A stretch of 13,480 nt of DNA from a virus (Duplodnaviria; Heunggongvirae; Uroviricota; Caudoviricetes): the IMG/VR virus record IMGVR_UViG_2740892234_000009, positions 1-13,480 of that record. One strand, 5' to 3'. The position numbers were made by a program, and so were the translations under genes. This document shows positions 1 to 13,114 of this stretch, piece by piece (within the stretch, counting starts at the first letter, position 1; each line of letters begins with the position of its first letter). Below the pieces are notes generated by a model. That model did no database searches. It was not told the DNA's origin and saw only the letters and a list, made by a program, of their open reading frames with translations.

Positions 1-1914
1 TTCAAGGTCGATCATCAGATGAATCCCCGCTCTGCTGGTGGATGTGAGCTTATGATGACCATTCACCTTAATTAAGGGATCTGTCGCCTCGCCAGTTTTA
101 TTATCGCTGGCGTGATGCTGATTGCCGCCAGGGTTCTCCTTGTGTGGATGTTCAGCGCCTTCCATTTCCTCCGGATCATTTTCCTGAACTTCAACCTGAT
201 TCTCTTCATCGAATGTTTCCTGGTATGTTGCGTCGCCCATCACCGCGCCACAATCAGGGCAGTTGCCGCCACCGCTCTGACCGCAGGCGGTGCAGACTTT
301 TTCCGGTTCCTGTTGCGCTACTGGTTCGGATTGTTTCGTTTCTGGCTCGTTTTGTAACGCATTTGGGCTGTTTTGTTCCGCTTTTTGGTCGTTCCGTTCC
401 GATTCATGCTGGTTCTGGTTCACAGAATCGCGAGTCTGGATCCCCTTGACCCATTTCGGATCATTAGGGTCGCTAATCCCCTCAACAAATTCACCACGCG
501 ATACAGCAAGTAACTTATCGGCGTCAGGCTGGCTGATATTGGCTGCCTGCATAATTTTGTTTACTTCGTCAGCGGTGACTTTTACTTGGTTAGCGGAACT
601 CACTTGCGACTGAGCATCCAGCGACTGCGCGTTCTGGCCATGTTCAGTTGTATCCGGTTCCATTGTTTCAGTTGTTGCCTGTTCACCTGCCATTGCGTCA
701 GATGGTTGTGGTTTTTCTTCTTCTGTTTCACGCTCAGTAACCACCTCGCGGTTAATTTCTTCCAGGATATCTTTTTCCGGCGTATGCCGGGCAGCTGTGA
801 GAGTTTCCTTGCTGGGGTTCTCGTGATCAGTTTCCGTCAAATAGGCGTTGATATACCCCTGAAGGCGTCCCGGGTAGTGATAAAATTCAGGGTGTGCGCT
901 TCGGATAAGTGCAAAAATAGCGGCGCGGGAATAGTCCAGAATACCCGGGGTTGCACGAAGTGCTGCGGACCATTCTTTGAACGGACTTTCTTTGTTCAGG
1001 ACTACTTCTTTTGCGCGACGATAAACGCTGCCCGGAATTTCATAAATATTAAAATCCATCGGAAGTGTGGCTGCTGCAATCTCCACATCCAGTGTGTCGA
1101 GGGTGTGTACTAAATTCGGATTGCGATCGGTTTTGTTCCCACCGCCAGCATTAGCACCGGAAGCCGTGCGGGTGATGCGTGAAACACGATTTCCTTTCAT
1201 CCACTCTTTTGTCAGCAGACCCCGATCAGTGTAGTCAGTGTCCAGGTATGCTTCGAAAAAAGCAGTTATTAGTCCCAGGTCTGAATTACCAGGATTAGGG
1301 AAAACTTTGTCAGTGTCACGAACCAGTTTGTGGAGGTCGCGAATCTCCAGCGAGTCGAGCAGACTGGTTTTATGCGAAATAGCCAGGGCAGTAACAGCCG
1401 GTAGTTCTTCAGCCCGTGCAATGTGTAATGCCTGGAGTTCGTCGCGTGAAACGTGCGTTACTGATTTTTCGCTGCCGTGTTGAGCAAGCCAACGAATGGG
1501 CAGTTCCTGACCGGAGACAGGCAGAAGCATGCTCTCCTCAATCTCAGTCATGTCTTCGCCGTTGATGTTGGTATTGTCAGTGCTGGCTGGTTTGTCCTGA
1601 ACAGAGGGGGAAGGGCCGATAAATGTCATTGTGATGCCATCTTTCCCGCCTTTTTCATAGCGGTTGCAGAATTCAGTATCAAACACGCCTTCTGGCGGAA
1701 GGTCGTCAACAACGGGCAAATTGACGCGGACGGGTTTTTTAAAGTCGTCTTCATCATAATCGTTGTCATCCATTGCGGTAATGCAGCGGGAGATTGCAAC
1801 AGATAATTTTTTTGCTGTAGTCCAGTAAAAACCACCTTTAATTCCTAGGCGTTTTCTTACTTTGTCATTTTTTGCTTCGCAATATAGTGCAAATTCTTCT
1901 TTATCAGTGCTCAT
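1..1914 (-). CDS. recE: RecE (exonuclease VIII) homolog, N-terminal 638 codons; 3' part of the gene lies beyond the window start
   Basis: Minus-strand frame open from ATG at 1914 (GAGG 10 nt upstream) to position 1 with no stop. Translation contains motifs I recognise from E. coli Rac RecE ([105 protein letters not shown]). Frame spot-checked around 1498-1530. The overlapping plus-strand ORFs in the track are spurious. Confidence 0.8.
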
Positions 1915-2007
1915 TATTGGTAAACCTCATCACAGATTTAAGGGTGAACAAATCTCTGCCATTGCTGACATATAAGAATGAAACTGGATATTTATTACGG
2001 TGCTGTT

Positions 2008-2199
2008 TTAAAATCCTGCCGGGATTTCGTTATTATCCTGGTGAATAACTTTATCGACCGGATAACAGTTGCCTGGAATTTTCTGTTCGGTTGCTGCTGC
2101 CATACATTCCTGCATTGTTCTGTGAACACTGACTGCAATATCAACTGGCTCTCCGGAAACAAGAAAAACCGTCAGAATAAGTGCAAATACTGGATTCAT
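2008..2199 (-). CDS. ydfD: YdfD-like small protein (63 aa) with N-terminal hydrophobic segment
   Basis: ATG at 2199 overlaps the dicB stop (ATGA); product MNPVFALILTVFLVSGEPVDIAVSVHRTMQECMAAATEQKIPGNCYPVDKVIHQDNNEIPAGF. Same size and position (immediately 3' of dicB) as ydfD in the K-12 Qin dicB operon. Assignment is from memory and synteny. Confidence 0.55.
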   Translation of the reverse strand: MNPVFALILTVFLVSGEPVDIAVSVHRTMQECMAAATEQKIPGNCYPVDKVIHQDNNEIPAGF

Positions 2200-2384
2200 T
2201 GTGCACATCCTTTTGGCATCAGACGTAAACGGGCCAGCATTGAAACAATGCATACTTTATTTAATAACTCCCGTTCGTGTTTTCTTTTGTTAATGGCATC
2301 TTCAGTAAATACAGGATTACTGATAGTGACACCAATTTCAAAACAACCTTCAGACGTATTAACGTTTGGTAATAACGTTTCCAT
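2196..2384 (-). CDS. dicB: DicB-like cell division inhibitor (62 aa)
   Basis: Internal ATG at 2384 of the 2196..2489 ORF, GAGG 8 nt upstream; product METLLPNVNTSEGCFEIGVTISNPVFTEDAINKRKHERELLNKVCIVSMLARLRLMPKGCAQ is near-identical to my recollection of E. coli DicB. Lies directly downstream of DicF, as in Qin. Confidence 0.8.
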   Translation of the reverse strand: METLLPNVNTSEGCFEIGVTISNPVFTEDAINKRKHERELLNKVCIVSMLARLRLMPKGCAQ

Positions 2385-2497
2385 TATCGCGTCCTCAACA
2401 ATGAATTTTGTGATGCGGTGCCTGGTGCCTCCAGGTGACGTTAACCAGTTAACAATTAACGCCGGATACAGAGAATCCACCCATAACACTGTTTTTG

Positions 2498-2569
2498 GTT
2501 TTAACTGTTCCGCGTGCGCTCAGCCGCATTCACCGCATCACAAAATTCACTTTAAAAAGGGCGGCAGAG
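2498..2569. repeat. Direct repeat copy 1 (72 bp) ending at the N-gap; corresponds to the 3' flank and terminal stem of DicF
   Basis: 2498-2569 equals 2610-2681 with one mismatch (c2521 vs t2633). The two copies flank the N run at 2570-2579, which suggests overlapping contig ends or a second DicF locus. Confidence 0.7.
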
Positions 2570-2579
2570 NNNNNNNNNN
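2570..2579. other. Assembly gap (10 N)
   Basis: Run of n in the sequence, flanked by a 72-bp direct repeat. Confidence 0.95.
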
Positions 2580-2665
2580 CATTCCCGTTACGCCCGTAAA
2601 AGACCGCTTGTTTTAACTGTTCCGCGTGCGCTTAGCCGCATTCACCGCATCACAAAATTCACTTT

Positions 2666-2723
2666 AAAAAGGGCGGCAGAGCAGTCACGGAGTAAAACTG
2701 ATACCGCCAAACGTCACCAGAAA
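2666..2723 (-). ncRNA. dicF: DicF small regulatory RNA (Hfq-dependent sRNA that inhibits ftsZ translation), with U-tail
   Basis: Reverse complement of 2671-2723 reads UUUCUGGUGACGUUUGGCGGUAUCAGUUUUACUCCGUGACUGCUCUGCCGCCC, followed by a U-run (A-run 2666-2670 on plus). This matches the DicF sequence as I remember it and sits upstream of dicB in the same orientation. Confidence 0.8.
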
Positions 2724-2904
2724 ATTGATAACAGAGGGCGTTGCAGCGGGGTTGTCACTTAAGCGTATGGTCAACCTGACAACCCGGTGTCCTCAACGGG
2801 GAAGGAATAACCCCGCCATACTTACCGCTGCGCCATTTCGCGGAGTGCCACAACCGGAAGCGCACGATCGAATTAAATTTAACGACGACCTATACAGAGA
2901 GACT

Positions 2905-3022
2905 AACTTCGCCGGGCGCTTTCGTGTTATGCCCTGACTTTTCAGGGATATATCCTTTTCAGTAAACTGTCAGTGCCGGATTCTTATCCGTGTCCGGCGC
3001 ACGCACTCTACCTCACCTGTGA
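2905..3022. promoter_or_regulatory. Conserved ~118-bp element, copy A: palindrome/hairpin CCCTGA-cttt-TCAGGG (2932-2947), hairpin GCCGGA-N12-TCCGGC (2975-2998), candidate sigma70 promoter on plus strand (-35 TTTTCA 2939-2944, 18-bp spacer, -10 TAAACT 2963-2968)
   Basis: Aligns over its whole length with 5040-5156 (about 85-90% identity by eye). The first palindrome carries a compensatory change relative to copy B. Lies between the Y stop codon (3028) and the DicF precursor region. Confidence 0.4.
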
Positions 3023-3027
3023 ATAAA

Positions 3028-3402
3028 TTAATGATTAATTGATATTTTGTTGTTTGATTCAACTTTCCCATCGGATGTGTGATGCTTTAAATCACAGGAA
3101 TTAATACTGCTCGCTGTAAAATGATTTTCAAGGGGAGCTATTCGAATCCCTTTCTTTTTCATTAACAAGCCAAATCCTTTATTAATGATGTCCATTAATT
3201 CCAGGAAGTATTTTTCATGTAAATCCTGGTTATCAGAGAGCTGCTTCTCTTCGTACAGACCGATAAAGGCACGACGCACGTTACCGGATATAGTATCGAT
3301 GGTTTCTTTTTCTACGGTACTCAGGTCAAGAGTCGCCAGTTGAGAGCGAACCACATTCGATGCCATTTCCTGGAATGGTACTGGTAAATCTTTAAATTCC
3401 AT
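3028..3402 (-). CDS. Hypothetical protein Y (124 aa): N-terminal ~50 aa conserved with the 5402..5809 product, unrelated AT-rich C-terminal part
   Basis: ATG at 3402 (MEFKDLPVPFQEMASNVVRSQLATLDLSTVEKETID...), GAGG 6 nt upstream, 11 nt after the stop of the upstream gene. The 5' ~150 bp are conserved at DNA level with 5650-5809; the rest is unrelated. The track ORF starts 4 codons earlier at 3414. Confidence 0.6.
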   Translation of the reverse strand: MEFKDLPVPFQEMASNVVRSQLATLDLSTVEKETIDTISGNVRRAFIGLYEEKQLSDNQDLHEKYFLELMDIINKGFGLLMKKKGIRIAPLENHFTASSINSCDLKHHTSDGKVESNNKISINH

Positions 3403-3413
3403 CGTCAACCTCA

Positions 3414-3566
3414 TCAGTCAGTGTTTCTGGTTAACCAGCGACGCGCGCCAGCTTCAGTTTTAAACGTTTTGCTTCTGGTATACGTCATCGCGGTAAACGT
3501 GCCGTCCTGGTTGGGAAACACGCCGTACACCAGAGATTCGTTGTTGCCAAGATCGATAGTATCCAT
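3414..3566 (-). CDS. Hypothetical small protein X (50 aa), first gene of the repressor-distal leftward operon
   Basis: ATG at 3566 (MDTIDLGNNESLVYGVFPNQDGTFTAMTYTRSKTFKTEAGARRWLTRNTD) with GAGG 5 nt upstream, directly preceded by the conserved leader element. The track ORF extends to 3653, but that part overlaps the conserved element and has no RBS. Confidence 0.45.
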   Translation of the reverse strand: MDTIDLGNNESLVYGVFPNQDGTFTAMTYTRSKTFKTEAGARRWLTRNTD

Positions 3567-3578
3567 GTTGACCTCATT

Positions 3579-3605
3579 TCCCCTTAACGCTGGGGTAGCG
3601 GAACT
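3579..3605 (-). promoter_or_regulatory. Conserved 27-nt leader element (minus sense AGTTCCGCTACCCCAGCGTTAAGGGGAA), copy 1
   Basis: Near-identical to 6495-6521; in both places it sits 13-16 nt upstream of the start codon of the first gene downstream of a repressor gene. Confidence 0.35.
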
Positions 3606-3747
3606 AAAAACCTGCTGCGCTGTTATACAAAGTGTTCCCGCCGTCATGTTCATACGCCTCGGGCTGGCTACTTACCCCCTGACCACTGCTTGGTAACTCG
3701 AAGTATTGCCCGGCGTTCTGTGGGGCGGGGTGGGTTGGTATGTTGTT

Positions 3748-3776
3748 AAGGTAACAAGGGTTACCTTTCGAGTCAA
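3748..3776 (-). promoter_or_regulatory. Candidate leftward promoter with operator: -35 TTGACT (3771-3776), 17-bp spacer, -10 TACCTT (3748-3753), overlapping palindrome GGTAAC-aagg-GTTACC (3750-3765)
   Basis: The palindrome half-sites are identical to the two palindromes in the cI-cro intergenic region (4514-4527, 4562-4575). Lies between the cI terminator and gene X. Confidence 0.4.
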
Positions 3777-3808
3777 TGCAATGTTGCAAAAGGTACATTT
3801 GAGGGCAT

Positions 3809-3832
3809 GAAAAACCCGCAATGAATGCGGGT
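3809..3832 (-). terminator. Rho-independent terminator 6 nt downstream of the cI-like stop
   Basis: Minus sense: stem ACCCGCA / TGCGGGT with 5-nt loop followed by UUUUU (plus 3814-3832 with A-run 3810-3814). Confidence 0.6.
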
Positions 3833-3838
3833 TCTGAC

Positions 3839-4555
3839 TCAGTCTAAGTATTGATGTATTTGTGAAACTTTACCTTTAATGGTGTAACCACCATTCAGTT
3901 CGATGGGTTTGTAAAGCGGATTCAGTGACAACAGATAGATGTTTGGTCCGTCAATCGCAACTTTTTTTAGTGTTACGTTTGGCGTTCCTTCCAATTGGAT
4001 TAAGATTATTTTTCCCACCAGTTCTCTAATGTTACTTGAGCATGGTGTGATCAGCACGGTAGATCCGTCGGGGATGGTTGGGAGGCCGTTAGAGTTTGTC
4101 ATCGCATCTCCCTCAACATGCAATAAAAAAGAGTTTTCAGCGGTTTTTGTCATGACATCAACCCAATTCTTAATACCAGGAATCTCGGTTACTGGACAAC
4201 TCATATCCCAATAACCAGCCTGTTCCCACGTTAAAACGGGCAACCGGGCGATGTTGTCACTAATGTAAGGGTACTGATTCAGACGCAGATCATCGGCTTT
4301 ATCGTGACCGTCCTTTCCATAAAGAATCCATTCAGGAGATTTGGAAAGCAATTTTGACAGTAGATACAAATTCTCACCGTCAGGTTTTGAAGAGCCATTT
4401 TCCCATTTTGTTACGGATACACGAGATATGCCGATTGCTTTCGCAACCTGCTGTTGGGTTAATCCAACGTCTTTTCGACGATTCCGAATACGTTCGCTGA
4501 TAGTGTTTTTCATGTAACCAATGTTACTACCAAGTGATGTTGCTATGGTTGACAT
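3839..4555 (-). CDS. CI-type phage repressor (HTH_XRE N-terminal domain plus LexA-like S24 peptidase C-terminal domain)
   Basis: 238-aa ORF. N-terminal ISERIRNRRKDVGLTQQQVAKAIGISRVSVTKWENG is a classic XRE helix-turn-helix; C-terminal part has S24/LexA-like features (HVEGDAM, GKIILIQLEG, TLKKV) as in lambda CI / P22 C2. The true start is probably the internal ATG at 4513 (MKNTISERIR...), which leaves a 91-bp divergent intergenic region holding both operator palindromes. Confidence 0.85.
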   Translation of the reverse strand: MSTIATSLGSNIGYMKNTISERIRNRRKDVGLTQQQVAKAIGISRVSVTKWENGSSKPDGENLYLLSKLLSKSPEWILYGKDGHDKADDLRLNQYPYISDNIARLPVLTWEQAGYWDMSCPVTEIPGIKNWVDVMTKTAENSFLLHVEGDAMTNSNGLPTIPDGSTVLITPCSSNIRELVGKIILIQLEGTPNVTLKKVAIDGPNIYLLSLNPLYKPIELNGGYTIKGKVSQIHQYLD

Positions 4556-4575
4556 TGTTATGTAACTATTGTTAC
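4514..4575. promoter_or_regulatory. Immunity operator region: palindromes GTAAC-caat-GTTAC (4514-4527) and GTAAC-tatt-GTTAC (4562-4575); candidate pR -35 TTGACA (4549-4554), -10 TACCCT (4573-4578)
   Basis: Two 14-bp inverted repeats with identical half-sites in the divergent cI/cro intergenic region; the same half-site palindrome recurs at 3750-3765. Confidence 0.5.
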
Positions 4576-4604
4576 CCTTCTACTCGAAATAACAGGAGAG
4601 TTTT

Positions 4605-4820
4605 ATGTTCAAAGATGATGTTCTGCGCTATTTCAAAAAAAAGCGACTAGTAGCTGAGGCTCTTGGAATTTCACATGTGGCTGTTGTGCGGTGGAAAGCA
4701 GTTATTCCCAAACTTCGCGCAATGGAACTGGATGAAATTACTAACGGTGAATTGAAATACAACCCAGAACTTTACAAGAAGCAGGATAGCACCTCAAACG
4801 AAGGAAAGAATGATTCATGA
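4605..4820 (+). CDS. Cro-like small HTH protein of the YdaS/DicC family (71 aa)
   Basis: Divergent from the repressor, AGGAG RBS at 4591-4595. Product is clearly homologous to the 7171..7398 product (FGSKTKLA.., ..VP.GRAM.L.E...GEL.Y.P..Y). Overlaps the next gene (ATGA at 4817-4820). Confidence 0.75.
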   Translation: MFKDDVLRYFKKKRLVAEALGISHVAVVRWKAVIPKLRAMELDEITNGELKYNPELYKKQDSTSNEGKNDS

Positions 4821-5029
4821 AAATCAAGCATGAACACATCCGCATGGCGATGAATGTCTGGGCGCATCCGGACGGCGAAAAAGTACCGGCTGCGAAAATT
4901 ACCAAAGCGTATTTCGAGCTGGGAATGACGTTCCCGGAACTGTATGACGACAGCCATCCGGAAGCCCTAGCCCGTAATACCCAGAAAATTTTCCGCTGGG
5001 TAGAGAAAGACACCCCTGATGCAGTTGAA
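4817..5029 (+). CDS. YdaT-like protein, N-terminal part only (truncated by the N-gap at 5030)
   Basis: Starts MKIKHEHIRMAMNVWAHPDGEK; segment NTQKIFRWVEKDTPD resembles NRVKIFERWKAIDTRD of the 7382..7933 product; same position after the cro-like gene. The track ORF reads through the Ns into unrelated sequence, which is an artefact. Confidence 0.5.
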
Positions 5030-5039
5030 NNNNNNNNNN
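5030..5039. other. Assembly gap (10 N)
   Basis: Run of n; interrupts the YdaT-like ORF and immediately precedes conserved element copy B. Confidence 0.95.
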
Positions 5040-5156
5040 AACCTCGCCGTGCGCTTTCGCGTTATGCTCTGACTTTTCAGAGAAATATCCTTTCAGTAAA
5101 CTGTCAGTGCCGGATGTTCACCCGTGTCCGGCGCACGCACTCCACTTCACCCGTGG
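5040..5156. promoter_or_regulatory. Conserved ~117-bp element, copy B: palindrome/hairpin CTCTGA-cttt-TCAGAG (5067-5082), hairpin GCCGGA-N12-TCCGGC (5109-5132), candidate promoter (-35 TTTTCA 5074-5079, 17-bp spacer, -10 TAAACT 5097-5102)
   Basis: Homologous to 2905-3022. The first palindrome differs from copy A by a symmetric pair of substitutions that preserves dyad symmetry/base pairing. Followed by a strong RBS and the ORF at 5191. Confidence 0.4.
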
Positions 5157-5190
5157 AGAACTCCTTAATTACCAACCCTCAGGAGGGTGA

Positions 5191-5424
5191 ATGTTAAAAT
5201 CAACTCTTATTGCTAAATGCCTTTATCAAAATCGCATGGTAAGCAGCATTTCAATAGGCGAGTCTGCAGTTAAAAGTATTTTCGAAGAGTACTTTCCCGG
5301 GCATGATTTTAATAAATGGAATACCAAATTACCGCCAGCAGTTTCAACGCGTATTCTGAAAGCAACCGAAAGAGCAAGTACAATTCGCGTTAACTATTTC
5401 ATTAAAGATTTGTGGGATCTTTGA
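5191..5424 (+). CDS. Hypothetical 77-aa protein, convergent with and overlapping the 3' end of the Y' gene by 23 bp
   Basis: AGGAGGG RBS at 5181-5187, ATG 5191, stop 5422-5424; AT-rich coding region; no homolog recognised. Confidence 0.4.
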   Translation: MLKSTLIAKCLYQNRMVSSISIGESAVKSIFEEYFPGHDFNKWNTKLPPAVSTRILKATERASTIRVNYFIKDLWDL

Positions 5425-5809
5425 TATCCACAGAGCCTAAAGTATGTGCATATGGATGTGCTATTATGCGCCCTCGCAGATTTGCATCATTTTCTAAATT
5501 CACTGAACGAAACAGGGCATCAACAAGGCTCTGTACAATGCAAAGGCAATCGAAGACTGTCGCCGTTTCTGTTTTGATTGATGAAAGAACATGGCCATTC
5601 ACGCAAACAGAAATTACCCGTTTATTAACATCGCTTTCCTGCTTTTGATTATCAGAACCATATAGCCCAGAAAAAGCATTGCGCACATTACGAACCATAT
5701 TATCGATGGTTTCTTTTTCTGCGGTACTAAGGTCAAGAGTAGCCAGTTGTGAACGAACTATATTCGATGCCATTTCCTGTAATGGCGTTGGTAAATCTTT
5801 AAATTCCAT
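5402..5809 (-). CDS. Hypothetical protein Y' (135 aa), paralog of Y with a different C-terminal cassette
   Basis: ATG at 5809 (MEFKDLPTPLQEMASNIVRSQLATLDLSTAEKETID...), GAGG RBS upstream. N-terminal ~50 aa about 85% identical to Y; the rest is unrelated and AT-rich. Confidence 0.6.
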   Translation of the reverse strand: MEFKDLPTPLQEMASNIVRSQLATLDLSTAEKETIDNMVRNVRNAFSGLYGSDNQKQESDVNKRVISVCVNGHVLSSIKTETATVFDCLCIVQSLVDALFRSVNLENDANLRGRIIAHPYAHTLGSVDIKDPTNL

Positions 5810-5831
5810 TATTAGCCTCGTTGGTTAGCTA

Positions 5832-6050
5832 TTAACGTGGGTATGTAATCATTCTGGCAATGCTTAATGCCGCTGCTTTTTCCAGATTGGTGATATCCTG
5901 CTCCAGAGCGGACAGATTTTCAGCCTGCTTAGCCCTGGCTTCATTGGCCCATTTCAGGTCCTGCACCGCCTTAATTTTCTGGTGCATCCACTCATAAAGT
6001 TCATCATCGGTATAGTCTGGCGCGATGATGACGGGGTCTCGTTTCTGCAT
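5832..6050 (-). CDS. Hypothetical 72-aa protein
   Basis: ATG at 6050 with AGGAG 5 nt upstream; product MQKRDPVIIAPDYTDDELYEWMHQKIKAVQDLKWANEARAKQAENLSALEQDITNLEKAAALSIARMITYPR has a helical/coiled-coil character. Confidence 0.55.
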   Translation of the reverse strand: MQKRDPVIIAPDYTDDELYEWMHQKIKAVQDLKWANEARAKQAENLSALEQDITNLEKAAALSIARMITYPR

Positions 6051-6122
6051 GTCGGCTCCTTGTGGTTAGCGTTGCCTGCTTTTTAACCACGTCAGGCGAG
6101 GTGGTATCCTCTGAGGGGTCTG

Positions 6123-6479
6123 TTACTCGAGAGGAAATTGGTTATGAATACAATCAAGTTTTCTTGCCCAGAATGTGGTGGCTAAGTCTTTGACACATCC
6201 TTTAAGCCGCAGGGCTCTGACAGTTTCGCGGGAGCCATCTGCAAAAATTGTGGTCACCTTGTAACTGAAGATGAGTCCTCGCAGTTCGATGACGAAATCG
6301 TTGACAATATCTTCGGTGCACTCACCAGAGACTTTCTGAAGTAAAGGCGCATACCGCTTAGTTACCGCTCTGATAACTCTTACCTGTCCGGCAATGGCGC
6401 TGATATCAATATAAAGCGCCATCGCTGTTTCTTTGCTGATCCCTGGACGCCTTCCATTCTGATGTTTGACTTCGCCCAC
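6123..6479 (-). CDS. Hypothetical 118-aa protein (GTG start), first gene downstream of the DicA-like repressor; conflicts with an antisense disrupted zinc-ribbon ORF
   Basis: GTG at 6479 preceded by AGAGGA and by the conserved 27-nt leader element. No homolog recognised. The C-terminal two thirds overlap a plus-strand zinc-ribbon reading frame (6144-6344), so the true coding strand of 6144-6344 is uncertain. Confidence 0.4.
   Translation of the reverse strand: MGEVKHQNGRRPGISKETAMALYIDISAIAGQVRVIRAVTKRYAPLLQKVSGECTEDIVNDFVIELRGLIFSYKVTTIFADGSRETVRALRLKGCVKDLATTFWARKLDCIHNQFPLE
6144..6344 (+). pseudogene. Zinc-ribbon small protein reading frame interrupted by an in-frame TAA at codon 14 (6183-6185)
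   Basis: GAGAGG RBS at 6129-6134, ATG 6144; conceptual product MNTIKFSCPECGG*VFDTSFKPQGSDSFAGAICKNCGHLVTEDESSQFDDEIVDNIFGALTRDFLK has two CxxC pairs and an acidic C-terminus typical of small zinc-ribbon proteins. Confidence 0.35.
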
Positions 6480-6494
6480 TGAGAAATCCTCTGC

Positions 6495-6521
6495 TTCCCC
6501 TTAACGCCGGGTAGCGGAACT
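6495..6521 (-). promoter_or_regulatory. Conserved 27-nt leader element, copy 2 (minus sense AGTTCCGCTACCCGGCGTTAAGGGGAA)
   Basis: Matches 3579-3605 except for one indel/substitution; 16 nt upstream of GTG 6479. Confidence 0.35.
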
Positions 6522-6686
6522 GTTTGCTGAGAACACCGTGCGGTGTCTTGATGAGTAGAATTTAGAATAGCCTAAGAGTTATGGTCAAGCTTTTTGTGTA
6601 GAAAAACCTAAGCTTCTTGATGTAAAAAACACAAGTATTTGAAAGTTTGTGCTTTTTATTACAGAGAGTTGCGAAAAAAAGGGGGG

Positions 6687-7094
6687 TTATTTATTTGCGC
6701 TTCTTTTGCGAGCTTTGAGTAGTTCTTCAAAAAGTTTGTTGAAATTCTCAACTCGAGCACGCATCTCTGACAACAGAGCCTTTTGCTCTGACTCAGGCAG
6801 TGCGTCGAACAGTTGAAGCAACTCTTTTTGATCTTCTGTCAGATTGACTGGCTGATTATCTGGGATCGGTTCGCCTGGTTGCTTATCTTCATCTCCAAAA
6901 AGAAGCCAAGTCGGCGAGCACTGAAGCGCCTGGCTCAGTGCGAATAATCTCTTCCCCGCTGGCTGTGTTTCATCTCTTTCCCATTGAGAAATTGTTACGT
7001 GAGCCACTTTGACCAGCTTACCTAATGCGGCCTGAGACAGTTTTAATTTTTTTCGCCTGTATAAGAGGCGAGCACCGAAGGTTTCGTTTTTCAT
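6687..7094 (-). CDS. dicA: DicA-like (P22 C2-type) HTH_XRE repressor, 135 aa
   Basis: Product contains LSQAALGKLVKVAHVTISQWERDETQPAGKRLFALSQALQCSPTWLLFGDEDKQP and ...LFDALPESEQ...EMRARVENFNKLFEELLKARKR, which closely match my recollection of E. coli DicA (also 135 aa). Divergent from a DicC-like gene. Confidence 0.8.
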   Translation of the reverse strand: MKNETFGARLLYRRKKLKLSQAALGKLVKVAHVTISQWERDETQPAGKRLFALSQALQCSPTWLLFGDEDKQPGEPIPDNQPVNLTEDQKELLQLFDALPESEQKALLSEMRARVENFNKLFEELLKARKRSANK

Positions 7095-7170
7095 ATTAGG
7101 TAATTCTAATTTTTCTTGACTTAGGTTTCTCTACGATCTAGTTTCCTTAGGAAAATCTAAGGGGTTCGAT
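7095..7170. promoter_or_regulatory. Divergent promoter/operator region: candidate rightward promoter -35 TTGACT (7116-7121), -10 TAGTTT (7139-7144); palindrome CCTTAG-gaaaat-CTAAGG (7145-7162); additional TTAGG/CTAA repeats (7096-7109, 7121-7126)
   Basis: Inverted repeats built on a CTTAGG/CCTAAG half-site in the 76-bp intergenic region between the divergent repressor and cro-like genes; AAGGGG RBS 7158-7163 before ATG 7171. Confidence 0.45.
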
Positions 7171-7398
7171 ATGTTGAAAATTGATGCTATAGAGTTTTTT
7201 GGCAGCAAAACAAAGCTTGCCAATGTCGCAGGAGTTAGGCTGGCAAGCGTTGCTGCATGGGGAGAACTGGTTCCTGAAGGTCGCGCGATGCGCCTGCAAG
7301 AGGCATCCGGCGGGGAACTTCAGTACGACCCCAAAGTTTATGACGAATATCGTAAGGCAAAGCGGGCGGGGCGGTTGAACAATGAAAATCACCACTGA
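7171..7398 (+). CDS. dicC: DicC/YdaS-family Cro-like protein (75 aa)
   Basis: Divergent from the DicA-like repressor; product MLKIDAIEFFGSKTKLANVAGVRLASVAAWGELVPEGRAMRLQEASGGELQYDPKVYDEYRKAKRAGRLNNENHH; homologous to the 4605..4820 product. Symbol assigned by position and partial recollection. Confidence 0.7.
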   Translation: MLKIDAIEFFGSKTKLANVAGVRLASVAAWGELVPEGRAMRLQEASGGELQYDPKVYDEYRKAKRAGRLNNENHH

Positions 7399-7933
7399 AC
7401 AGGTTTGTGAGGCTCTGGATACCTGGGTATGCCGACCAGGAATGACACAGGAGCAGGCGACGATATTAATCACGGAAGCATTCTGGGCTCTGAAAGAACG
7501 CCCGAACATCGATGTTCAACGCGTCACGTTTAATGATGGCGAGGTTGATCAACGGGCGCTGGGCGTTAACCGGGTGAAGATATTCGAACGCTGGAAAGCT
7601 ATCGACACCAGAGATAAGCGTGACAAATTCACGGCGCTGATTCCGGCAATTATGGAGGCTATCCGGATCAGCGATTTCAGATTGTATTGTGAAATTACTG
7701 ACGGAAAAAGCATTACGTACATGATCGCCGGGTTAAACAAAGAATATGGCGATGTGGTGGAGTCCGGGCTGCTTTTTGCGGATCCAGTTGTTGTGGAACG
7801 TGAGACTGACGAGCTTATAGAAAAAGCTATTGCTTTCAAGCACGCGTATCGTCAGCAATACCAATATTACTTTGCAGATAAACAAATGTCTGCCAGGGGT
7901 TCGTATGAGTATCGATGCACTACGATGGGCTAA
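7382..7933 (+). CDS. YdaT-like protein (183 aa)
   Basis: Overlaps the cro-like gene end by 17 nt; shares the MKI start and the KIFxRW..DT.D segment with the 4817 ORF. Family assignment is from memory. Confidence 0.6.
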   Translation: MKITTEQVCEALDTWVCRPGMTQEQATILITEAFWALKERPNIDVQRVTFNDGEVDQRALGVNRVKIFERWKAIDTRDKRDKFTALIPAIMEAIRISDFRLYCEITDGKSITYMIAGLNKEYGDVVESGLLFADPVVVERETDELIEKAIAFKHAYRQQYQYYFADKQMSARGSYEYRCTTMG

Positions 7934-8955
7934 AAAGGTGAAAACCGGCAGTTCATCCAGTAAGTCAGTATTGACCTGGCTTGCTGATATGTGCGGTGCC
8001 GATTTGTGTGCATACCCGTCTGTATCTGCACTGGCAGAAGTAACGGAACTGAACAAAAAGACTGTGCAGGACAGCTTACGACACCTGATGGAGATTGGGT
8101 TAATTGTTGATACCGGTGAGAGAAAAGGCAGAACAAAGCAAATTGTGGTGTACCGACTTATCGGTGTAGAAGAAAGTGTTGCCGAGCCTGAATACACCCA
8201 AAAACGGGAGTCTTTAAAGGTGGGTAAAATTGGTGCTGTTAATAAAAACAGTACCGAAAATGGTTATGTTTCAGCACAAAACAGACCCAAAAACAGAACT
8301 CTTAGCTGCATGGAAAATAACCAAAGACACCCAAATTTTCCATCAAAGACACCCAAAAACGGATCACGGAACCCAAAGGAACCCAAAGGAACCCAAAGAT
8401 CTAAACCCCACACATAACGCACGCGAGAGTGCTCCGACCAGTGAGCAGGAAGTTTTGTCGTTACAGGCAGCCCCCCCTGTATTCCTGTATGGCCTGAGCG
8501 AACCCATCGGAAAATTCCCGATGAGCGATAGCTGGTATCCGTCACGGGATTTTCGACGACGGGCTGCGTTGTGGGGGATGGCTTTGCCGGAGACAGAATT
8601 TACACCTGCTGAACTTGCCGCCTTCCGGGACTACTGGGCAGCGGAGGGGAAAGTGTTTACGCAGATTCAGTGGGAGCAGAAATTCGCCCGTCACGTAAAT
8701 CACGTCAGGGCGCAGGTTAAACCAGTCAGCAAAGGGGTAAACCATGCAGCAGCACCAGGTGGCACCGCATCACGGGCAGTTCAGGAAATTCGGGCAGCAC
8801 GTGAGCAGTGGGAACGTGAAAACGGATTTATCAGCGACGGAAACGGCCTGGAAGCTGTGGGAACTCATGGGGGTGGTTTATTCGAACCGCTGGACCCAGA
8901 AGAACGGGGCCGCACCTTCGAAGCTCTGGATTGCACAGATTGGCGCGATGACTGA
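7905..8955 (+). CDS. Replication initiator (O-like): N-terminal HTH/winged-helix domain (7905-8417, frame A) and DnaT-like C-terminal domain (frame B, ends 8955), separated by an apparent +1 frameshift within 8230-8417
   Basis: ATG 7905 with AGGGG RBS. N-terminal part MSIDALRWAKKVKTG...VLTWLADMCGADLCAYPSVSALAEVTELNKKTVQDSLRHLMEIGLIVDTGERKGRTKQIVVYRL. C-terminal part GKFPMSDSWYPSRDFRRRAALWGMALPETEFTPAELAAFRDYWAAEGKVFTQIQWEQKFARH aligns with E. coli DnaT ([26 protein letters not shown]...[20 protein letters not shown]). Frame A stops at 8415-8417; frame B is open from about 8230. The gene may be a pseudogene or carry an assembly indel. Confidence 0.6.
8281..8400. repeat. Iteron-like array inside the replication gene: ACCCAAA-containing repeats, including CAAAGACACCCAAA x2 (8322-8335, 8344-8357) and a perfect 10-bp tandem GGAACCCAAA x3 (8368-8397)
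   Basis: Repeats read directly from the sequence; the position (inside the initiator gene between its two domains) is analogous to ori-lambda within gene O. Confidence 0.55.
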
Positions 8956-9409
8956 GCAGCAAATCCGGCAGGTCTGCCGCCAGTGCATGGACTGCTGCCG
9001 GGCGGGTGAAACATGGCCTCCGGACCTGGCTGAGTTTGTGGCACTGATTTCGAAAAGCGGAGCCAATCCATTCGGTCTGACGGTGGATGCTGTGATGGAG
9101 GAGTACTGCCGCTGGCGCAATGAGTCCTGGCGATACGACGGAAGTGATAAGTACCCGTGGTCTCAGCCTGTGCTGTATCACATTTGCCTCGAGATGCGTT
9201 CAAAGGGGATTGAGCGCCAGATGACCGAAGGGGAATTAAAACGGCTTGCAGAACGGCAACTGACGAAATGGGCAAAGCATGTTAGTAACGGCCTGAGCGT
9301 TCCGCCAGTCCGGCGACAACTGGCGGCCCCCAAACGCCCGTCGGGGCCAACGCCAATTGAGTTGCTGAAACAGGAATATGAACGCCGGAAAGCGGCTGGT
9401 TTTGTTTGA
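8948..9409 (+). CDS. Lambda P-like replication protein (helicase loader family), 153 aa
   Basis: ATG 8948 overlaps the upstream stop (ATGACTGA). Product aligns with the C-terminal part of lambda P: PDLAEFVALI ~ PGQFVAWC, VDAVMEEYCRWRNE ~ VDMVYEYCRKRG, KYPWSQPVLYHICLEMRSKGIERQMTEGELKRLAERQL ~ SYPWKSNAHYWLVTNLYQNMRANALTDAELRRKAADEL. The track ORF starts earlier at 8744, inside the upstream gene. Confidence 0.7.
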   Translation: MTEQQIRQVCRQCMDCCRAGETWPPDLAEFVALISKSGANPFGLTVDAVMEEYCRWRNESWRYDGSDKYPWSQPVLYHICLEMRSKGIERQMTEGELKRLAERQLTKWAKHVSNGLSVPPVRRQLAAPKRPSGPTPIELLKQEYERRKAAGFV

Positions 9410-9442
9410 GTTGAGAAGTGATTTTTTACCGGGAGGAAATTT

Positions 9443-10177
9443 ATGGAGACTGTTTTTGACGCACTGAAAGCGATGGGAAAAGCCACGTCGGTAGAGCTGG
9501 CTGCGCGCCTTGATATCAGTCGTGAAGAAGTACTGAACGAGCTGTGGGAACTGAAAAAGGCTGGCTTCGTTGATAAAAGCGTATACACCTGGCGTGTGGC
9601 TGATAACAACGTTCAGCAGGAACAGCCAGCGCCAGAAGAAACCACCACGGCAACAGAAGCGAAAATCTCAGAGTGCGATTTAACCGCGACGATTGAACAA
9701 CGCGGACCACAAACGGCGGATGAACTGGCTACGCTGTTCGGTACAACATCCCGCAAAGTTGCTTCAACGCTGGCAATGGCAATCAGCAAAGGTCGTCTGA
9801 TTCGCGTAAACCAGAACGGTAAAATTCGTTACTGCATACCAGGTGATAATTTACCAGCAGAGCCGAAAGTTGAATCGGTAGCGGAAACCGATGGTAAAGC
9901 CTTTCCTCAGCCAGCCGGTGTTGCGTTACCGGTACAGAAAGATGCAACACAGGAAGATATTAAAACAGAAACTGTGGCGGACATTGTGCAGTCGCTGCCA
10001 TCGTTTACTGCAACGCGAGAAGATGATTTGATTTTGCCATCGCTGCATATGGCAAATCGCGAACTGCGTAGGGCGAAGAATCATGTCCAGAAGTGGGAGC
10101 GAGTCTGCGCCGCGCTGCGGGAGCTGAACAAGCACCGGGATATGGTTGCCGGGATTTGTCGGAAGTCCGGGCAATGA
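9443..10177 (+). CDS. Hypothetical 244-aa protein with two winged-helix-like segments
   Basis: GGAGG RBS at 9432-9436, ATG 9443. wHTH-like segments [29 protein letters not shown] and [32 protein letters not shown]; acidic/T-rich linker. No specific family recognised. Confidence 0.55.
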
Positions 10178-10338
10178 GCGGATGGTGCAGGCCTGAAATC
10201 ATGATACTAACAATGAAGGTAAAATGCATCGGCAGTCTGATTGGTCGTAGTGAGGCGGCGGTCAGGATGAAAGCCCGGGTTAAGGGAATAAGCCTGATTC
10301 TGCGGGGTGATTTTCACCAGTCAACAAAATATCCGTAG
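10174..10338 (+). CDS. Hypothetical small ORF (54 aa), weak support
   Basis: ATG 10174 overlapping the upstream stop (ATGA); no clear RBS; alternative in-frame ATGs at 10201 and 10213. Confidence 0.2.
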
Positions 10339-10618
10339 CGCGATAACGGTCAAAAATTATGGCGCTGACACTTTTGTGCCACTGGAGATGACTGTACCTA
10401 AGTTCAGGGGAGAAGAACACGTCCGGTGGGATGGTCGGGCCAGATTTAAAGGGCAGGTCATGGCTCCAGCCTGTACGCTGGCAATGGAGGCTGCCTGGCG
10501 GGAAATTGATATGGGAACCACGCCACTCAGGGATTTACTGCCGGTCCAGAGAATAAATTCCTGTTACGGTTACACCACTGTGATCTTGCAAGTGCAGGAA
10601 AGTAGGTCTACACGGTAA
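10307..10618 (+). CDS. Hypothetical ORF (103 aa, GTG start), weak support; possibly a gene remnant
   Basis: Open frame overlapping the previous ORF in another frame; no convincing RBS; no homolog recognised. Confidence 0.2.
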   Translation: MIFTSQQNIRSAITVKNYGADTFVPLEMTVPKFRGEEHVRWDGRARFKGQVMAPACTLAMEAAWREIDMGTTPLRDLLPVQRINSCYGYTTVILQVQESRSTR

Positions 10619-10846
10619 CGCGAGTGCGTGTAACTTTTGATGTCATTCCCGTAGAAACACCGGACAAATTTTCGCTGACAGGTCATGCAGAAGGTATAAA
10701 TCTGCAGATTATGGACAATTACGGATATCCGGCAAGAGCCGGAAAAAGCATGCCGCCTCTAATTCTCAGTGGAAGATGGACTTGATTATACTCATTGCAT
10801 TGTCAGAAATAGTTATCCATTAAAGGCTGGCTATTCCAAACAGGAT

Positions 10847-10870
10847 GTTGATTACAAAAATGTAATCAAC
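10847..10870. promoter_or_regulatory. Perfect 24-bp palindrome GTTGATTACA-aaaa-TGTAATCAAC in the AT-rich region upstream of the binding-protein gene
   Basis: Read directly; lies about 30 bp upstream of a TATAAT hexamer (10899-10904) and about 170 bp upstream of ATG 11037. Confidence 0.3.
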
Positions 10871-11036
10871 ATGTAAGGTTTATACTCTTCAATATGCGTA
10901 TAATTTTCCTTATTTTGTTGACTTTAAATAACAAGCTATGCACGAGGTAAAGTCGGATAAGTTTATCTGGATGTAATATATATTATTTGTAGTGTTTATA
11001 ACTTTATTTCATGATAACCAATAAAAGGAGTTTTTT

Positions 11037-11795
11037 ATGAGGAACATAATGGCAGGTTTTTTAATATTCCTGTCTTCTGCTGCTTATGCTGATATCAATC
11101 TGTATGGTCCTGGTGGCCCGCATACAGCCTTGCTTGATGCAGCCAAACTTTATGCCGAAAAAACAGGTATTATAGTGAACGTTCATTACGGCCCACAGAA
11201 CAAATGGAATGAAGATGCCAAAAAAAATGCAGATATCTTGTTTGGCGCATCAGAACAATCTGCTCTGGCTATCATTCGGGACCATAAAGACAGCTTCAGT
11301 GAAAAAGATATTCAGCCTCTTTATCTGCGAAAAAGTATTTTACTGGTAAAGAAAGGTAATCCTAAAAATATCCGGAGTATTGACGACCTGACCAGACCTG
11401 GGATTGGCGTAATTGTTAATGATGGTGGTGGTACCAGTAATACATCAGGCACTGGCGTCTGGGAAGATATTGCCGGACGTAAAGGGAATATAGAAACTGT
11501 CGCCGCAATCCGAAAAAATATTATTTTATATGCGCCCAATAGCGGAACTGCACGTAAGGCTCTTGAGAATCAGCCTGGAGCAGATGTCTGGATAACCTGG
11601 GCTGACTGGGCAGCCAGTAATCCAGAAATTGGTGATGTCGTGGAAATAGCGCCAGACTACGTGATATGGCGTGATATGAACATTACAGTACGTCAGGATG
11701 CAAATGATGAAACCCGTCGATTTGCAGAATGGCTACAAACCGATGAAGCGGCGCCTGCATTCAAAAAATATGGCTGGACCAGGAAAGGCACTTGA
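11037..11795 (+). CDS. Periplasmic substrate-binding protein of the ModA (molybdate/tungstate-binding) family, with signal peptide; no cognate permease/ATPase in the window
   Basis: GGAG RBS 11025-11028. N-terminal signal peptide MRNIMAGFLIFLSSAAYA. C-terminus FAEWLQTDEAAPAFKKYGW resembles the ModA C-terminus (AFYDYLKGPQAAEIFKRYGF); overall type-2 periplasmic binding protein pattern. Sits in a low-GC island (10620-11036). Confidence 0.75.
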   Translation: MRNIMAGFLIFLSSAAYADINLYGPGGPHTALLDAAKLYAEKTGIIVNVHYGPQNKWNEDAKKNADILFGASEQSALAIIRDHKDSFSEKDIQPLYLRKSILLVKKGNPKNIRSIDDLTRPGIGVIVNDGGGTSNTSGTGVWEDIAGRKGNIETVAAIRKNIILYAPNSGTARKALENQPGADVWITWADWAASNPEIGDVVEIAPDYVIWRDMNITVRQDANDETRRFAEWLQTDEAAPAFKKYGWTRKGT

Positions 11796-11797
11796 CA

Positions 11798-11827
11798 TCC
11801 TCGTCCTTCAGGACGTGGATTCTTTTT
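11798..11827 (+). terminator. Rho-independent terminator after the binding-protein gene
   Basis: Stem TCCTCGTCC / GGACGTGGA (one mismatch), loop TTCA, followed by TTCTTTTT; begins 3 nt after the stop. Confidence 0.5.
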
Positions 11828-11914
11828 CCGGATGCCGCGCCAGCGGCATGTAGGGGCAGCTCACAAAACGGAAAAAATTGTACGCTAAGCCTCGCCAGGT
11901 GAACTGAATTCATT

Positions 11915-11938
11915 CCGATATGGGAATTCCCATATCGG
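11915..11938. repeat. Perfect 24-bp palindrome CCGATATGGGAATTCCCATATCGG
   Basis: Read directly; centred on a GAATTC site; a second GAATTC lies at 11906-11911. No flanking T-run, so it is not a terminator. Confidence 0.6.
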
Positions 11939-12023
11939 GCGAAAACGGTTTGCTGTAACGGCAGAGTTAAGTAGGATTGCTGCGGGTGCTTGAGGCTATC
12001 TGCCTCGGGCATGAACACCAACG

Positions 12024-12033
12024 NNNNNNNNNN
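12024..12033. other. Assembly gap (10 N) upstream of the hok locus
   Basis: Run of n. Confidence 0.95.
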
Positions 12034-12131
12034 TAAAAGCCCCACCCGACTATAAATCGAAGTGAGGCCCCTATATGCTCGTCACATATAGATTGCCTCT
12101 TACGGACCGAAAGGTCAAGGAGAAGCAGGCT

Positions 12132-12287
12132 ATGAAGCAGCAAAAGGCGATGTTAATCGCCCTGATCGTCATCTGTTTAACCGTCATAGTGACGGCACTG
12201 GTAACGAGGAAAGACCTCTGCGAGGTACGAATCCGAACCGGCCAGACGGAGGTCGCTGTCTTCACAGCTTACGAACCTGAGGAGTAA
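12132..12287 (+). CDS. hokD: Hok/Gef-family membrane toxin (type I toxin), 51 aa
   Basis: Product MKQQKAMLIALIVICLTVIVTALVTRKDLCEVRIRTGQTEVAVFTAYEPEE is a canonical Hok/Gef peptide (hydrophobic helix, conserved C..E..R..G..EVAAF-type tail). It matches my recollection of HokD (RelF) best, but the paralog assignment is less certain than the family. RBS AAGGAG 12118-12123. Confidence 0.75.
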   Translation: MKQQKAMLIALIVICLTVIVTALVTRKDLCEVRIRTGQTEVAVFTAYEPEE

Positions 12288-12355
12288 GAGACCAGGCGGG
12301 GGAGAAATCCCTCGCCACCTCTGATGTGTCAGGCATCCTCAACGCACCCGCACTT

Positions 12356-12382
12356 AACCCGCTTCGGCGGGTTTTTGTTTTT
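12356..12382 (+). terminator. Rho-independent terminator at the 3' end of the hok transcript
   Basis: Stem ACCCGC / GCGGGT with TTCG loop followed by TTTTTGTTTTT. Confidence 0.6.
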
Positions 12383-12507
12383 ATTTTCAACGCGTTTGAA
12401 GTTCCGGACGGCGCCGGAATAGAATCAAAAATACTTAAGTAGCGCGCAGGGAGAAGAGGGATGGACCCCGAACAGGGGAGTGCTATTTATCTGGAAGGAT
12501 TCTGTTG

Positions 12508-12765
12508 ATGAGAATCGAAGAATTACGTGAAATTTTTAGTGAAGATGGCCTCTATACTGTGCGCGTTGAGAAGGGCGCTATTGTCAGCCACTGCCGTATT
12601 AAATGTTTACAGTCTCAACAAAGGAAGAGTGGAGCTGCGTTAATTCATTTTGTGGATGGGCTTGTGACGGATGGTTTTATTTTGCGTGCAAATGAATTTG
12701 TCACATCGTTGCCGTCTCTGAAAGAAGCTGGGATTAAGGCTGGTTTTTCTGCTTTTGAAGATTAG
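12508..12765 (+). CDS. Hypothetical 85-aa phage protein
   Basis: ATG 12508 with GGAAGGA 9 nt upstream (the track ORF starts at TTG 12505); product MRIEELREIFSEDGLYTVRVEKGAIVSHCRIKCLQ.... Occupies the position of rem next to hokD in Qin, but the sequence is not recognised. Confidence 0.5.
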   Translation: MRIEELREIFSEDGLYTVRVEKGAIVSHCRIKCLQSQQRKSGAALIHFVDGLVTDGFILRANEFVTSLPSLKEAGIKAGFSAFED

Positions 12766-12834
12766 TGAATTCATCTACAATTCAGCGCAGGGCTGAACCC
12801 CTGTTGAGTAACACTGTGCCACCGGAGAAAGCCG

Positions 12835-13113
12835 ATGGCGCAAAATTCCAGACTACACAATTCTGATAATTCAGCCGTCTTTGCCAGCAGGCACGGGCGG
12901 CGTTCTCATGCATTCAAATCTGACTGGTTCCGGCACGCCCCATGCACTGAAGAACAGGCCGAATGGCTGATTCAGAACTACCGCAGACGTGGGTATGAGT
13001 TTAGGAAAGCCCTCAGCCTCGATTATCGTCACTGGATAATCTACGTCAGGCTGCCGTACTCCGAGCGCCCACCGCGTCCGTCCCGCACATTCCAGCAACG
13101 CATCTGGAGGTAA
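12835..13113 (+). CDS. Hypothetical 92-aa basic protein
   Basis: GGAG RBS 12824-12827, ATG 12835; Arg-rich product; no homolog recognised. Confidence 0.4.
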   Translation: MAQNSRLHNSDNSAVFASRHGRRSHAFKSDWFRHAPCTEEQAEWLIQNYRRRGYEFRKALSLDYRHWIIYVRLPYSERPPRPSRTFQQRIWR

Positions 13114-13114
13114 C

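Follow-up and report, generated by a model that had tools for sequence, protein, structure and literature searches.

How can two phage genes begin with almost the same protein and end with entirely different ones? The question is raised by a pair of minus-strand genes, called here Y and Y', in a 13,480-nucleotide (nt) stretch of a Caudoviricetes virus (IMG/VR record IMGVR_UViG_2740892234_000009, positions 1 to 13,480), which as a whole is referred to as the window. Comparison of the two genes with their relatives supports the exchange of cassettes at the slot that they occupy, because the same N-terminal DNA (the N-module) is found on two C-terminal types, with breakpoints at codon ~53 and at a conserved non-coding block termed R. 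It appears reasonably likely that Y and Y' represent an uncharacterised family of dicBF-type prophages in which a constant N-module carries C-termini swapped at a fixed slot, the proteins being made together with DicF and DicB and their two parts perhaps serving for docking and specificity.

Two shared blocks around a variable segment

A first-pass annotation, made from the letters alone, had placed the two genes on the minus strand, and its coordinates are borne out by the list of open reading frames (ORFs) and by the Shine-Dalgarno sequences. The parts of the two genes and their surroundings are as follows, with lengths of proteins in amino acids (aa).

3028..3402, minus strand: Y, a 124-aa Y-family protein of the phrog_6937 type, WP_000394557-like
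5402..5809, minus strand: Y', a 135-aa Y-family protein of the phrog_1363 type, WP_000394552-like
3247..3402, minus strand: N-module of Y, codons 1-52, the proposed left homology arm
3028..3246, minus strand: C-terminal cassette of Y, Y-type, guanine plus cytosine content (GC) 0.33
5654..5809, minus strand: N-module of Y', common to Y, with codons 8-31 a candidate for a separately exchangeable patch
2905..3037 (core about 2905-3010), no strand assigned: R, conserved non-coding block with repeats D2 and D4, the proposed right homology arm
5040..5190, no strand assigned: R', with the conserved leader and Shine-Dalgarno sequence CCTCAGGAGGGTGA of the convergent ORF

The near-identical N-terminus and the abrupt switch that had been noticed earlier are evident in a BLASTP alignment of the two proteins (44/60 identities, E=7e-28), which covers the N-terminus only, about 52 residues, and the remainder of the two ORFs is unalignable. 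In the DNA, a repeat termed D1 (3254-3421 and 5661-5828) spans 168 nt around the start codon with 79% identity, and the identity within it drops from 16-20 to 6-8 of every 20 nt past nt ~140-160 of the ORF. A second shared block, R, had been missed by the first-pass annotation. It lies 3' of both stop codons (2905-3037 and 5040-5171), is 83-89% identical over ~130 nt, so that conserved sequence encloses the variable segment at either end. In both genes, a GAGG Shine-Dalgarno sequence precedes the ATG of the MEFKDLP motif by 7-11 nt, and the family start codon of Y is the ATG at 3402 and not the one at 3414. The idea that the C-terminal cassettes are of foreign, low-GC composition holds for Y, with 0.33 in the cassette and 0.45 in the N-module, but not for Y', where the values are 0.40 and 0.39.

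The N-module and the C-terminal types

The motif MEFKDLP...NVRxAFxGLY, spread over 52 residues, defines the family. The first homology search with this 52-aa module returned only short or partial proteins and told little of the C-termini, which was remedied by searches of representatives and with full-length proteins. A profile of the module searched against 1.84 billion representatives found 39 clusters at the 50% identity level, with the module at residues 1-52 in 39/39 and the C-termini varying, as the first-pass annotation had thought a survey of homologs might reveal. Full-length searches recovered about 225 clusters at 90% identity, all 'hypothetical', with hosts that are nearly all E. 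coli and a few that are E. albertii, E. marmotae or Salmonella. A scan of genome contigs yielded E. albertii and one remote Xenorhabdus locus only, the prophage copy in the latter being 33% identical and made of the N-module alone. Copies of ~44% identity occur in short-tailed Stx phages in a different early-left context, and proteins of 50-52 aa that comprise only the N-module are found in phage phi191 and in Xenorhabdus. Overall, the family appears from these searches to be almost restricted to Escherichia. Of 5,426 complete E. coli genomes, 1,357 contain N-module DNA, with 1-3 copies apiece.

Clustering of the sequence past the GLY motif gave seven C-terminal types with at least two members, the largest being the Y-type with 84 clusters, the Y'-type with 37, whose members occur as a 135-aa and a 201-aa form, one type of 133 aa with 29 and one of 208-212 aa with 17. 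The PHROG database divides the family into phrog_6937, 1363, 2151, 9419 and 33007, which have only the N-terminal 50-65 positions in common. Y matches phrog_6937 over its full length (1-124/124, E=1.3e-76) and Y' matches phrog_1363 (1-138/139, E=4.8e-47), both labelled 'unknown function'; the C-terminal part of Y' by itself matches phrog_23433. Further, C-terminal sub-modules recur in PHROGs 23433, 30817, 12693, 2982, 15476 and 25397, sometimes at the N-terminus of stand-alone proteins. Y is 98% identical to cluster P0154 and is annotated as a 'hypothetical protein' in complete genomes, and Y' is 99% identical to cluster P0103.

Evidence for cassette exchange

Direct mosaic evidence comes from 80 IMG/VR loci that share an identical 53-aa N-module, followed in some by the Y-type and in others by the P0187-type (133-aa type) C-terminus. 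When such a pair is aligned, the 300 nt upstream of the ORF and its first ~160 nt are ~100% identical in DNA, the sequence past that point is unrelated, and identity is back at R. Besides the joints at codon ~53 and the R edge, further joints are seen at about codons 8, 31, 92 and 128. The 135-aa and 201-aa forms of the Y'-type part near codon 128. Between Y' and either phage Evi or the 201-aa form, codons 8-31 have ~45% nucleotide identity with flanks of ~100%. When Y' is compared with the related loci L004 and L011, helix 1 and the loop after it are seen to occur in two strongly divergent forms over these codons, TPLQEMASNIVRSQLATLDLSTAEK and KEIQTIAATTLGDSLVKIDPAYTKK, which points to a patch that is exchanged on its own or to a surface of specificity. 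As in a mosaic accessory slot, the DNA is variable between conserved flanks, the position is syntenic, and presence and absence are polymorphic. The earlier reading of the breakpoint as cassette exchange is thus upheld by an N-module that stays constant over at least seven unrelated C-terminal types.

A fixed slot in the dicBF operon

Between positions 2000 and 7100, the minus strand holds two early-left operons, both from lambdoid prophages of the dicBF type (Qin-like), in which the neighbours of Y and Y' are the following.

2671..2722, minus strand: gene of the small RNA (sRNA) DicF (Rfam RF00039, 76.7 bits against a gathering score of 48, E=7.6e-16)
3414..3566, minus strand: ydfA (DUF1391), upstream of Y (Pfam PF07151, E=4e-28)
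3839..4555, minus strand: LexA/S24-type cI repressor of the Y prophage (HTH_3 and Peptidase_S24), annotated 'LexA family protein'
5832..6050, minus strand: ydfC, upstream of Y', near-identical to K-12 YdfC and annotated ydfC in complete genomes
6687..7094, minus strand: DicA-like repressor of the Y' prophage (HTH_3, 135 aa), at the same position as dicA in Qin

Upstream of Y', ydfC is followed by a 118-aa ORF and then by the DicA-like repressor. The locus is of the dicBF type in that DicF lies downstream in the same orientation, dicB and ydfD follow downstream in the window, and a repressor and ydfA or ydfC stand upstream; the dicF of the Y' operon lies beyond a run of N at which two pieces of the window meet, and is present in complete genomes. 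The gene order in these genomes is repressor, ydfA or ydfC, hypothetical protein, dicB, ydfD, exonuclease, xis and int. This synteny is unchanged in every dicBF-type locus examined, and the spacing from the end of R to dicF is 181-186 nt in all loci. Y and Y' are the last ORFs ahead of the long untranslated stretch that contains dicF, but the claim that they are the last genes of their operons fails, since the operon continues through DicF, dicB, ydfD, exonuclease, xis and int.

In K-12, the whole cassette is absent from Qin and ydfC runs directly into R, which is retained though K-12 has no convergent ORF. In K-12, dicBF is transcribed from dicBp, under repression by DicA, as a single polycistronic mRNA that is processed (PMC10448788). 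The location of a Y-family gene within such a repressed early operon would argue against expression in the lysogen, which marks superinfection-exclusion membrane proteins of the SieB/Imm kind, as far as can be judged from that study.

Two other assignments were rejected. Y is not a fusion of YdfB and YdfC, as both K-12 proteins are unrelated to Y and ydfC is a separate gene upstream of Y'. R is not the RNase III site for the 190-nt DicF species, as that site is ~137 nt upstream of dicF and downstream of R. As separate observations, a sub-threshold Rfam match to STnc100 (2352-2561, minus strand, 40.1 bits against a gathering score of 47, E=6.5e-6) covers the dicF-dicB spacer and the dicB leader; and in L008 and L009 (1-2265), both with the 208-aa family type, the ydaT-like gene beside the prophage immunity region is split by a Mu-like module of transposase and repressor.

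Structure and function searches

In both AlphaFold2 (AF2) models, the N-module has helices at residues 8-23 and 32-50. The model of Y, with a predicted local distance difference test score (pLDDT) of 70.7, extends the second of these into a long helix, 32-83, across the junction and ends in a disordered tail, while that of Y' continues with a low-confidence beta-hairpin and a helix and, at a pLDDT of 53.5, was too poor for a fold search. Foldseek with the Y model, a helical hairpin, gave no PDB match at E<1, and its matches in BFVD were family members only, namely N-module-only proteins of 50-52 aa.

The family, which had not been recognised from the sequence, did not turn out to be a characterised one. 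Pfam, NCBIfam and PADLOC gave nothing significant for Y, Y', orf77 (the convergent ORF of the Y' cassette), five other convergent ORFs and four other family types. PADLOC-DB 2.0 had no match at E<=0.01 for Y, Y' or orf77, and only chance-level matches (E 0.006-0.02) for other family members and convergent ORFs. Sequence-profile searches of the PDB, for which alignments of the N-module and of the Y'-type served as queries, reached best E values of 0.2-0.5, which is chance level. Hydrophobicity profiles have no clear transmembrane segment, the maximum Kyte-Doolittle value being 0.51 in Y and a borderline 1.58 in Y'. The motif MEFKDLP is absent from the literature searched, in which papers on dicBF leave the gene unnamed, drawing non-conserved genes only as unlabelled boxes, and papers on hotspots omit the slot. 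The Y/Y' family is one of uncharacterised small soluble proteins.

Proposed explanation

The explanation that we favour starts from the fixed slot, which lies after ydfA or ydfC and before R, 183 nt upstream of dicF, and in which the stretch from the N-module to R, comprising the C-terminal part and, for most types of cassette, a convergent ORF, differs among prophages. The N-module DNA and R could act as homology arms, and cassettes might be swapped by homologous recombination between co-resident or co-infecting lambdoid phages. On derepression, the early-left promoter that the repressor controls would express the Y-family protein along with DicF and DicB. For the constant N-module, the likeliest role is docking to a conserved partner or oligomerisation, and the variable C-terminus would set what is bound. 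A role in host takeover or in conflict between phages is speculative.

Several points weigh against this explanation. The AF2 models are moderate for Y and poor for Y', and the idea of two-helix docking is therefore weakly based. The searches of Pfam, NCBIfam, PADLOC, PDB profiles and folds returned no significant match to a function. The recombination is deduced from mosaic patterns and was not observed directly. Truncated forms of 69-109 aa are widespread in databases, and the C-terminus may therefore be dispensable. Moreover, the operon transcript was studied in K-12, which has no Y-family gene.

Selection and the status of the C-terminus

Whether the two parts are kept as protein can be judged from the ratio of non-synonymous to synonymous substitution rates (dN/dS). 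Among close variants, the N-module has a dN/dS of 0.02-0.15 at dS 0.2-0.5, with, for example, 11 synonymous vs 1 non-synonymous changes or 10 vs 1; between Y-type N-modules and Y' the ratio is 0.21-0.31. Because of these low values and of the GAGG Shine-Dalgarno sequence in both genes, the N-module is taken to be conserved as a protein and not merely as a recombination linker, and neither copy to be a pseudogene. The possibility that one of them might be a pseudogene fragment was not confirmed, both being, on these data, intact and under purifying selection. The Y-type C-terminus, tail included, has a dN/dS of 0.1-0.5.

A possible, though rather improbable, alternative holds that the N-module is the whole functional unit and that the C-termini are by-products, without specificity, of convergent accessory genes (morons) inserted or replaced nearby. 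An insertion would have truncated the gene, and the ORF would read on into whatever DNA follows. It would fit with this that N-module proteins of 50-52 aa stand alone and that one PHROG profile has 64 positions, that truncated forms of 69, 87, 88, 106 and 109 aa abound, certain of them on over 100 contigs, that the Y'-type forms of 135 and 201 aa part at the very point at which different convergent ORFs start, and that the tails are predicted by AF2 to be disordered or of low confidence. However, the last 32 codons of the Y-type C-terminus have a dN/dS of 0.08-0.33 at dS up to 1.8, the C-terminal sub-modules recur within other phage protein families, and the window's Y keeps a 72-aa C-terminus without an adjacent convergent ORF.

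The convergent ORFs

The variable segment often includes, besides the C-terminus, a small ORF on the opposite strand.

5191..5424, plus strand: orf77, convergent ORF of the Y' cassette (phrog_10348, full length, E=1e-47)
L006, 4362-4592: convergent ORF in another locus
L008, 4628-4837: convergent ORF in another locus
L011, 4584-4775: convergent ORF in another locus
L089, 3365-3625: convergent ORF in another locus
L092, 3299-3652: convergent ORF in another locus
L095, 1837-2019: convergent ORF in another locus

It is tempting to regard such a cassette as an effector-immunity pair of the polymorphic-toxin kind, the C-terminus being the effector and the convergent ORF its neutraliser, and the arrangement offers some encouragement for this doubtful view. 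A convergent ORF of 63-92 aa stands between the stop of the Y-family gene and R in 5/6 cassette arrangements, often overlapping the stop (by 23 nt at the 3' end of Y' in the case of orf77), and the Xenorhabdus prophage locus has the same layout with a convergent 60-aa ORF. There are at least six mutually unrelated types; that they form one divergent family was ruled out by zero pairwise similarity. Four of them, orf77, orf92, orf91 and orf73, begin directly after the common R-edge sequence CCTCAGGAGGGTGA(A)-ATG and so share one Shine-Dalgarno and ATG site, the start of orf63 is nine bases further in, and orf69 has a different sequence at the R edge. Five types have their own PHROG families, of unknown function, and orf77 is annotated as a coding sequence (WP_000920491) in complete genomes and in phage Evi, and is absent from K-12.

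Set against this, the commonest Y-type arrangement, found in 29 loci and including the window's Y with its stop codon 7 nt from R, has no convergent ORF. The same C-terminal core is found with different partners (the Y-type with none, orf73 or orf91, and the Y'-type with orf77 or orf63), which argues against strict effector-immunity pairing, and there is no always-adjacent, co-varying immunity gene. Toxin, nuclease and secretion domains were not found in the library scans: by Pfam, PADLOC and PDB the family has neither a C-terminal toxin domain nor an N-terminal delivery or secretion region, the N-module being of 52 aa. The ORFs are convergent, whereas the partners in contact-dependent inhibition (CDI) or Rhs systems are co-directional. 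Finally, substitution patterns provide mixed evidence that the convergent ORFs are coding, as orf91 has 4 synonymous vs 1 non-synonymous change, and orf92, which speaks against the pairing, has 0 vs 4 and frameshifted alleles in 8/46 loci.

R itself was compared between the window (5040-5200, plus strand, and 2905-3037), L002 (2575-2700) and about 90 related loci. The predicted RNA fold of R' has z=-3.41 on the plus strand, that of the convergent ORF, vs z=-1.47 on the operon strand. In the minimum-energy fold of the plus strand, the Shine-Dalgarno sequence of the convergent ORF pairs with an upstream CUCCU, and one R hairpin has a compensatory C-G to U-A change as well as a U.G wobble, the latter fitting only this strand. 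Judged by these predictions, R resembles a structured RNA encoded opposite to the dicBF operon. A sigma-70 consensus promoter was not matched on the plus strand of R.

A more elaborate and equally unlikely proposal sees in the slot a conflict locus with two sides that take turns, the Y-family protein being expressed in one state and the convergent small proteins in the other. After derepression, the N-module would dock on a conserved host or phage target, and the swappable C-terminus would act against rival phages or against defences that vary. In the lysogen, R would encode on the opposite strand a structured leader that drives the small proteins (orf77, orf63, orf92 and others), and these would serve in exclusion or defence. 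Convergent transcription might also damp leaky read-through into the toxic dicF and dicB.

That the shared 5' part is kept for a nucleic-acid reason (as a recombination linker, or for translational coupling or RNA processing), or that one copy is a decaying pseudogene, might draw on the shortness of the conserved stretch, its location in a processed polycistronic mRNA (PMC10448788) and the many frameshifted fragments in databases, but is highly improbable and largely refuted by the excess of synonymous changes given above, by the persistence of the motif, with proteins that are 33-44% identical, in Stx phages and Xenorhabdus, whose DNA is unalignable, and by the full length of the two window copies and their 98-99% identity to large clusters.

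Comparison with known systems

The slot belongs to the well-known mosaicism of lambdoid phages, and is itself undescribed. Modular exchange at conserved boundary sequences was reportedly established for lambdoid phages by the HK97 and HK022 work of Hendrix and Juhala. The Y slot resembles lambdoid mosaic accessory genes or morons in its fixed syntenic position, sharp breakpoints, presence/absence polymorphism and small early-left ORFs of unknown function. It differs from them in that one breakpoint is inside an ORF at a domain boundary, giving a constant N-domain with many C-termini, and in that the other anchor is the non-coding R, also the translation start for convergent ORFs. The K-12 Qin dicBF operon resembles the loci of Y and Y' in its architecture, sharing the repressor, ydfA/ydfC, R, DicF, dicB and ydfD, with DicF, DicB and YdfC near-identical, but lacks a Y-family gene and a convergent ORF.

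The constant N-part, sharp junction, unrelated C-parts and small variable neighbour gene recall polymorphic toxins (CdiA-CT/CdiI and Rhs-CT/RhsI). Unlike CdiA and Rhs proteins, the Y family has a 52-aa N-module instead of a large delivery domain, has no secretion signal or toxin domain, and has a partner ORF that is convergent, sometimes absent and not strictly co-varying. P22-like tailspikes and tail fibres combine a conserved N-terminal docking domain with exchangeable C-terminal domains, and the Y family, for which docking and specificity are proposals, is like them in joining a conserved N-terminal part to C-terminal parts swapped by recombination. Those are, however, large virion proteins with known partners, and the Y family consists of early proteins of ~125 aa without a known partner. 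The antiviral hotspots of P2-like prophages and P4-like satellites (PMC9122126) are likewise slots for variable cargo between conserved flanks in E. coli prophages, but the cargo of the Y slot measures 0.2-0.7 kb, matches none of the known defence models and is in part an in-frame extension of a conserved gene.

Significance of the slot

About a quarter of complete E. coli genomes carry the domain-shuffled Y family at this slot. The dicBF locus is known for the DicF sRNA, the division inhibitor DicB and phage exclusion through ManXYZ, and the genes between the repressor and dicF have so far been treated as anonymous filler. The natural chimeras, with the same N-terminus on different C-termini and the reverse, constitute a compact, cloneable set with which to probe the function of an early-left accessory protein. 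Pathogenic E. coli have several copies, and in them the slot could bear on conflict between phage and host or between phages. Should the proteins be inert passengers, the locus would still be a clean example of intragenic modular exchange in lambdoid phages.

The source stretch and its probable joins

Y and Y' are neighbours in the window, which contains three runs of exactly 10 N.

5030-5039, no strand assigned: 10-N run, the join of two pieces that reside in different prophages in complete genomes

This run has a truncated ydaT-like gene on one side and R' on the other. Its junction is found in 0/5,426 complete E. coli genomes, in which matches begin exactly at 5040 or stop at 5029. The run at 2570-2579 has the 3' end of dicF on both sides, in two copies that are 99% identical; this sequence is a single copy in complete genomes, and the doubled junction is again found in 0/5,426. 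In complete genomes, the Y and Y' pieces are in separate prophages 0.4-1.1 Mb apart; in strain 2013C-3264, they are at 4.96 Mb and 0.59 Mb, ~1.1 Mb apart, each within its own complete prophage. As the pieces map to separate prophages and the junctions are absent from complete genomes, Y and Y' are probably paralogues in two prophages of one genome and not neighbours. The window is probably a join of separate pieces, and the adjacency of the two genes an assembly join.

The Y' prophage also carries cargo of other kinds. A 252-aa ORF (11037-11795, plus strand) sits where a complete genome that is 100% identical over window positions 5040-9000 annotates the AcfC-family adhesin Paa. A hok/sok type I toxin-antitoxin locus (11984-12287, plus strand) has a sok match of 66.5 bits, above the gathering score, and complete genomes annotate the same pair, Paa and hok/sok. 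The third run of N, at 12024-12033, lies inside the sok RNA, which aligns across it with its length unchanged.

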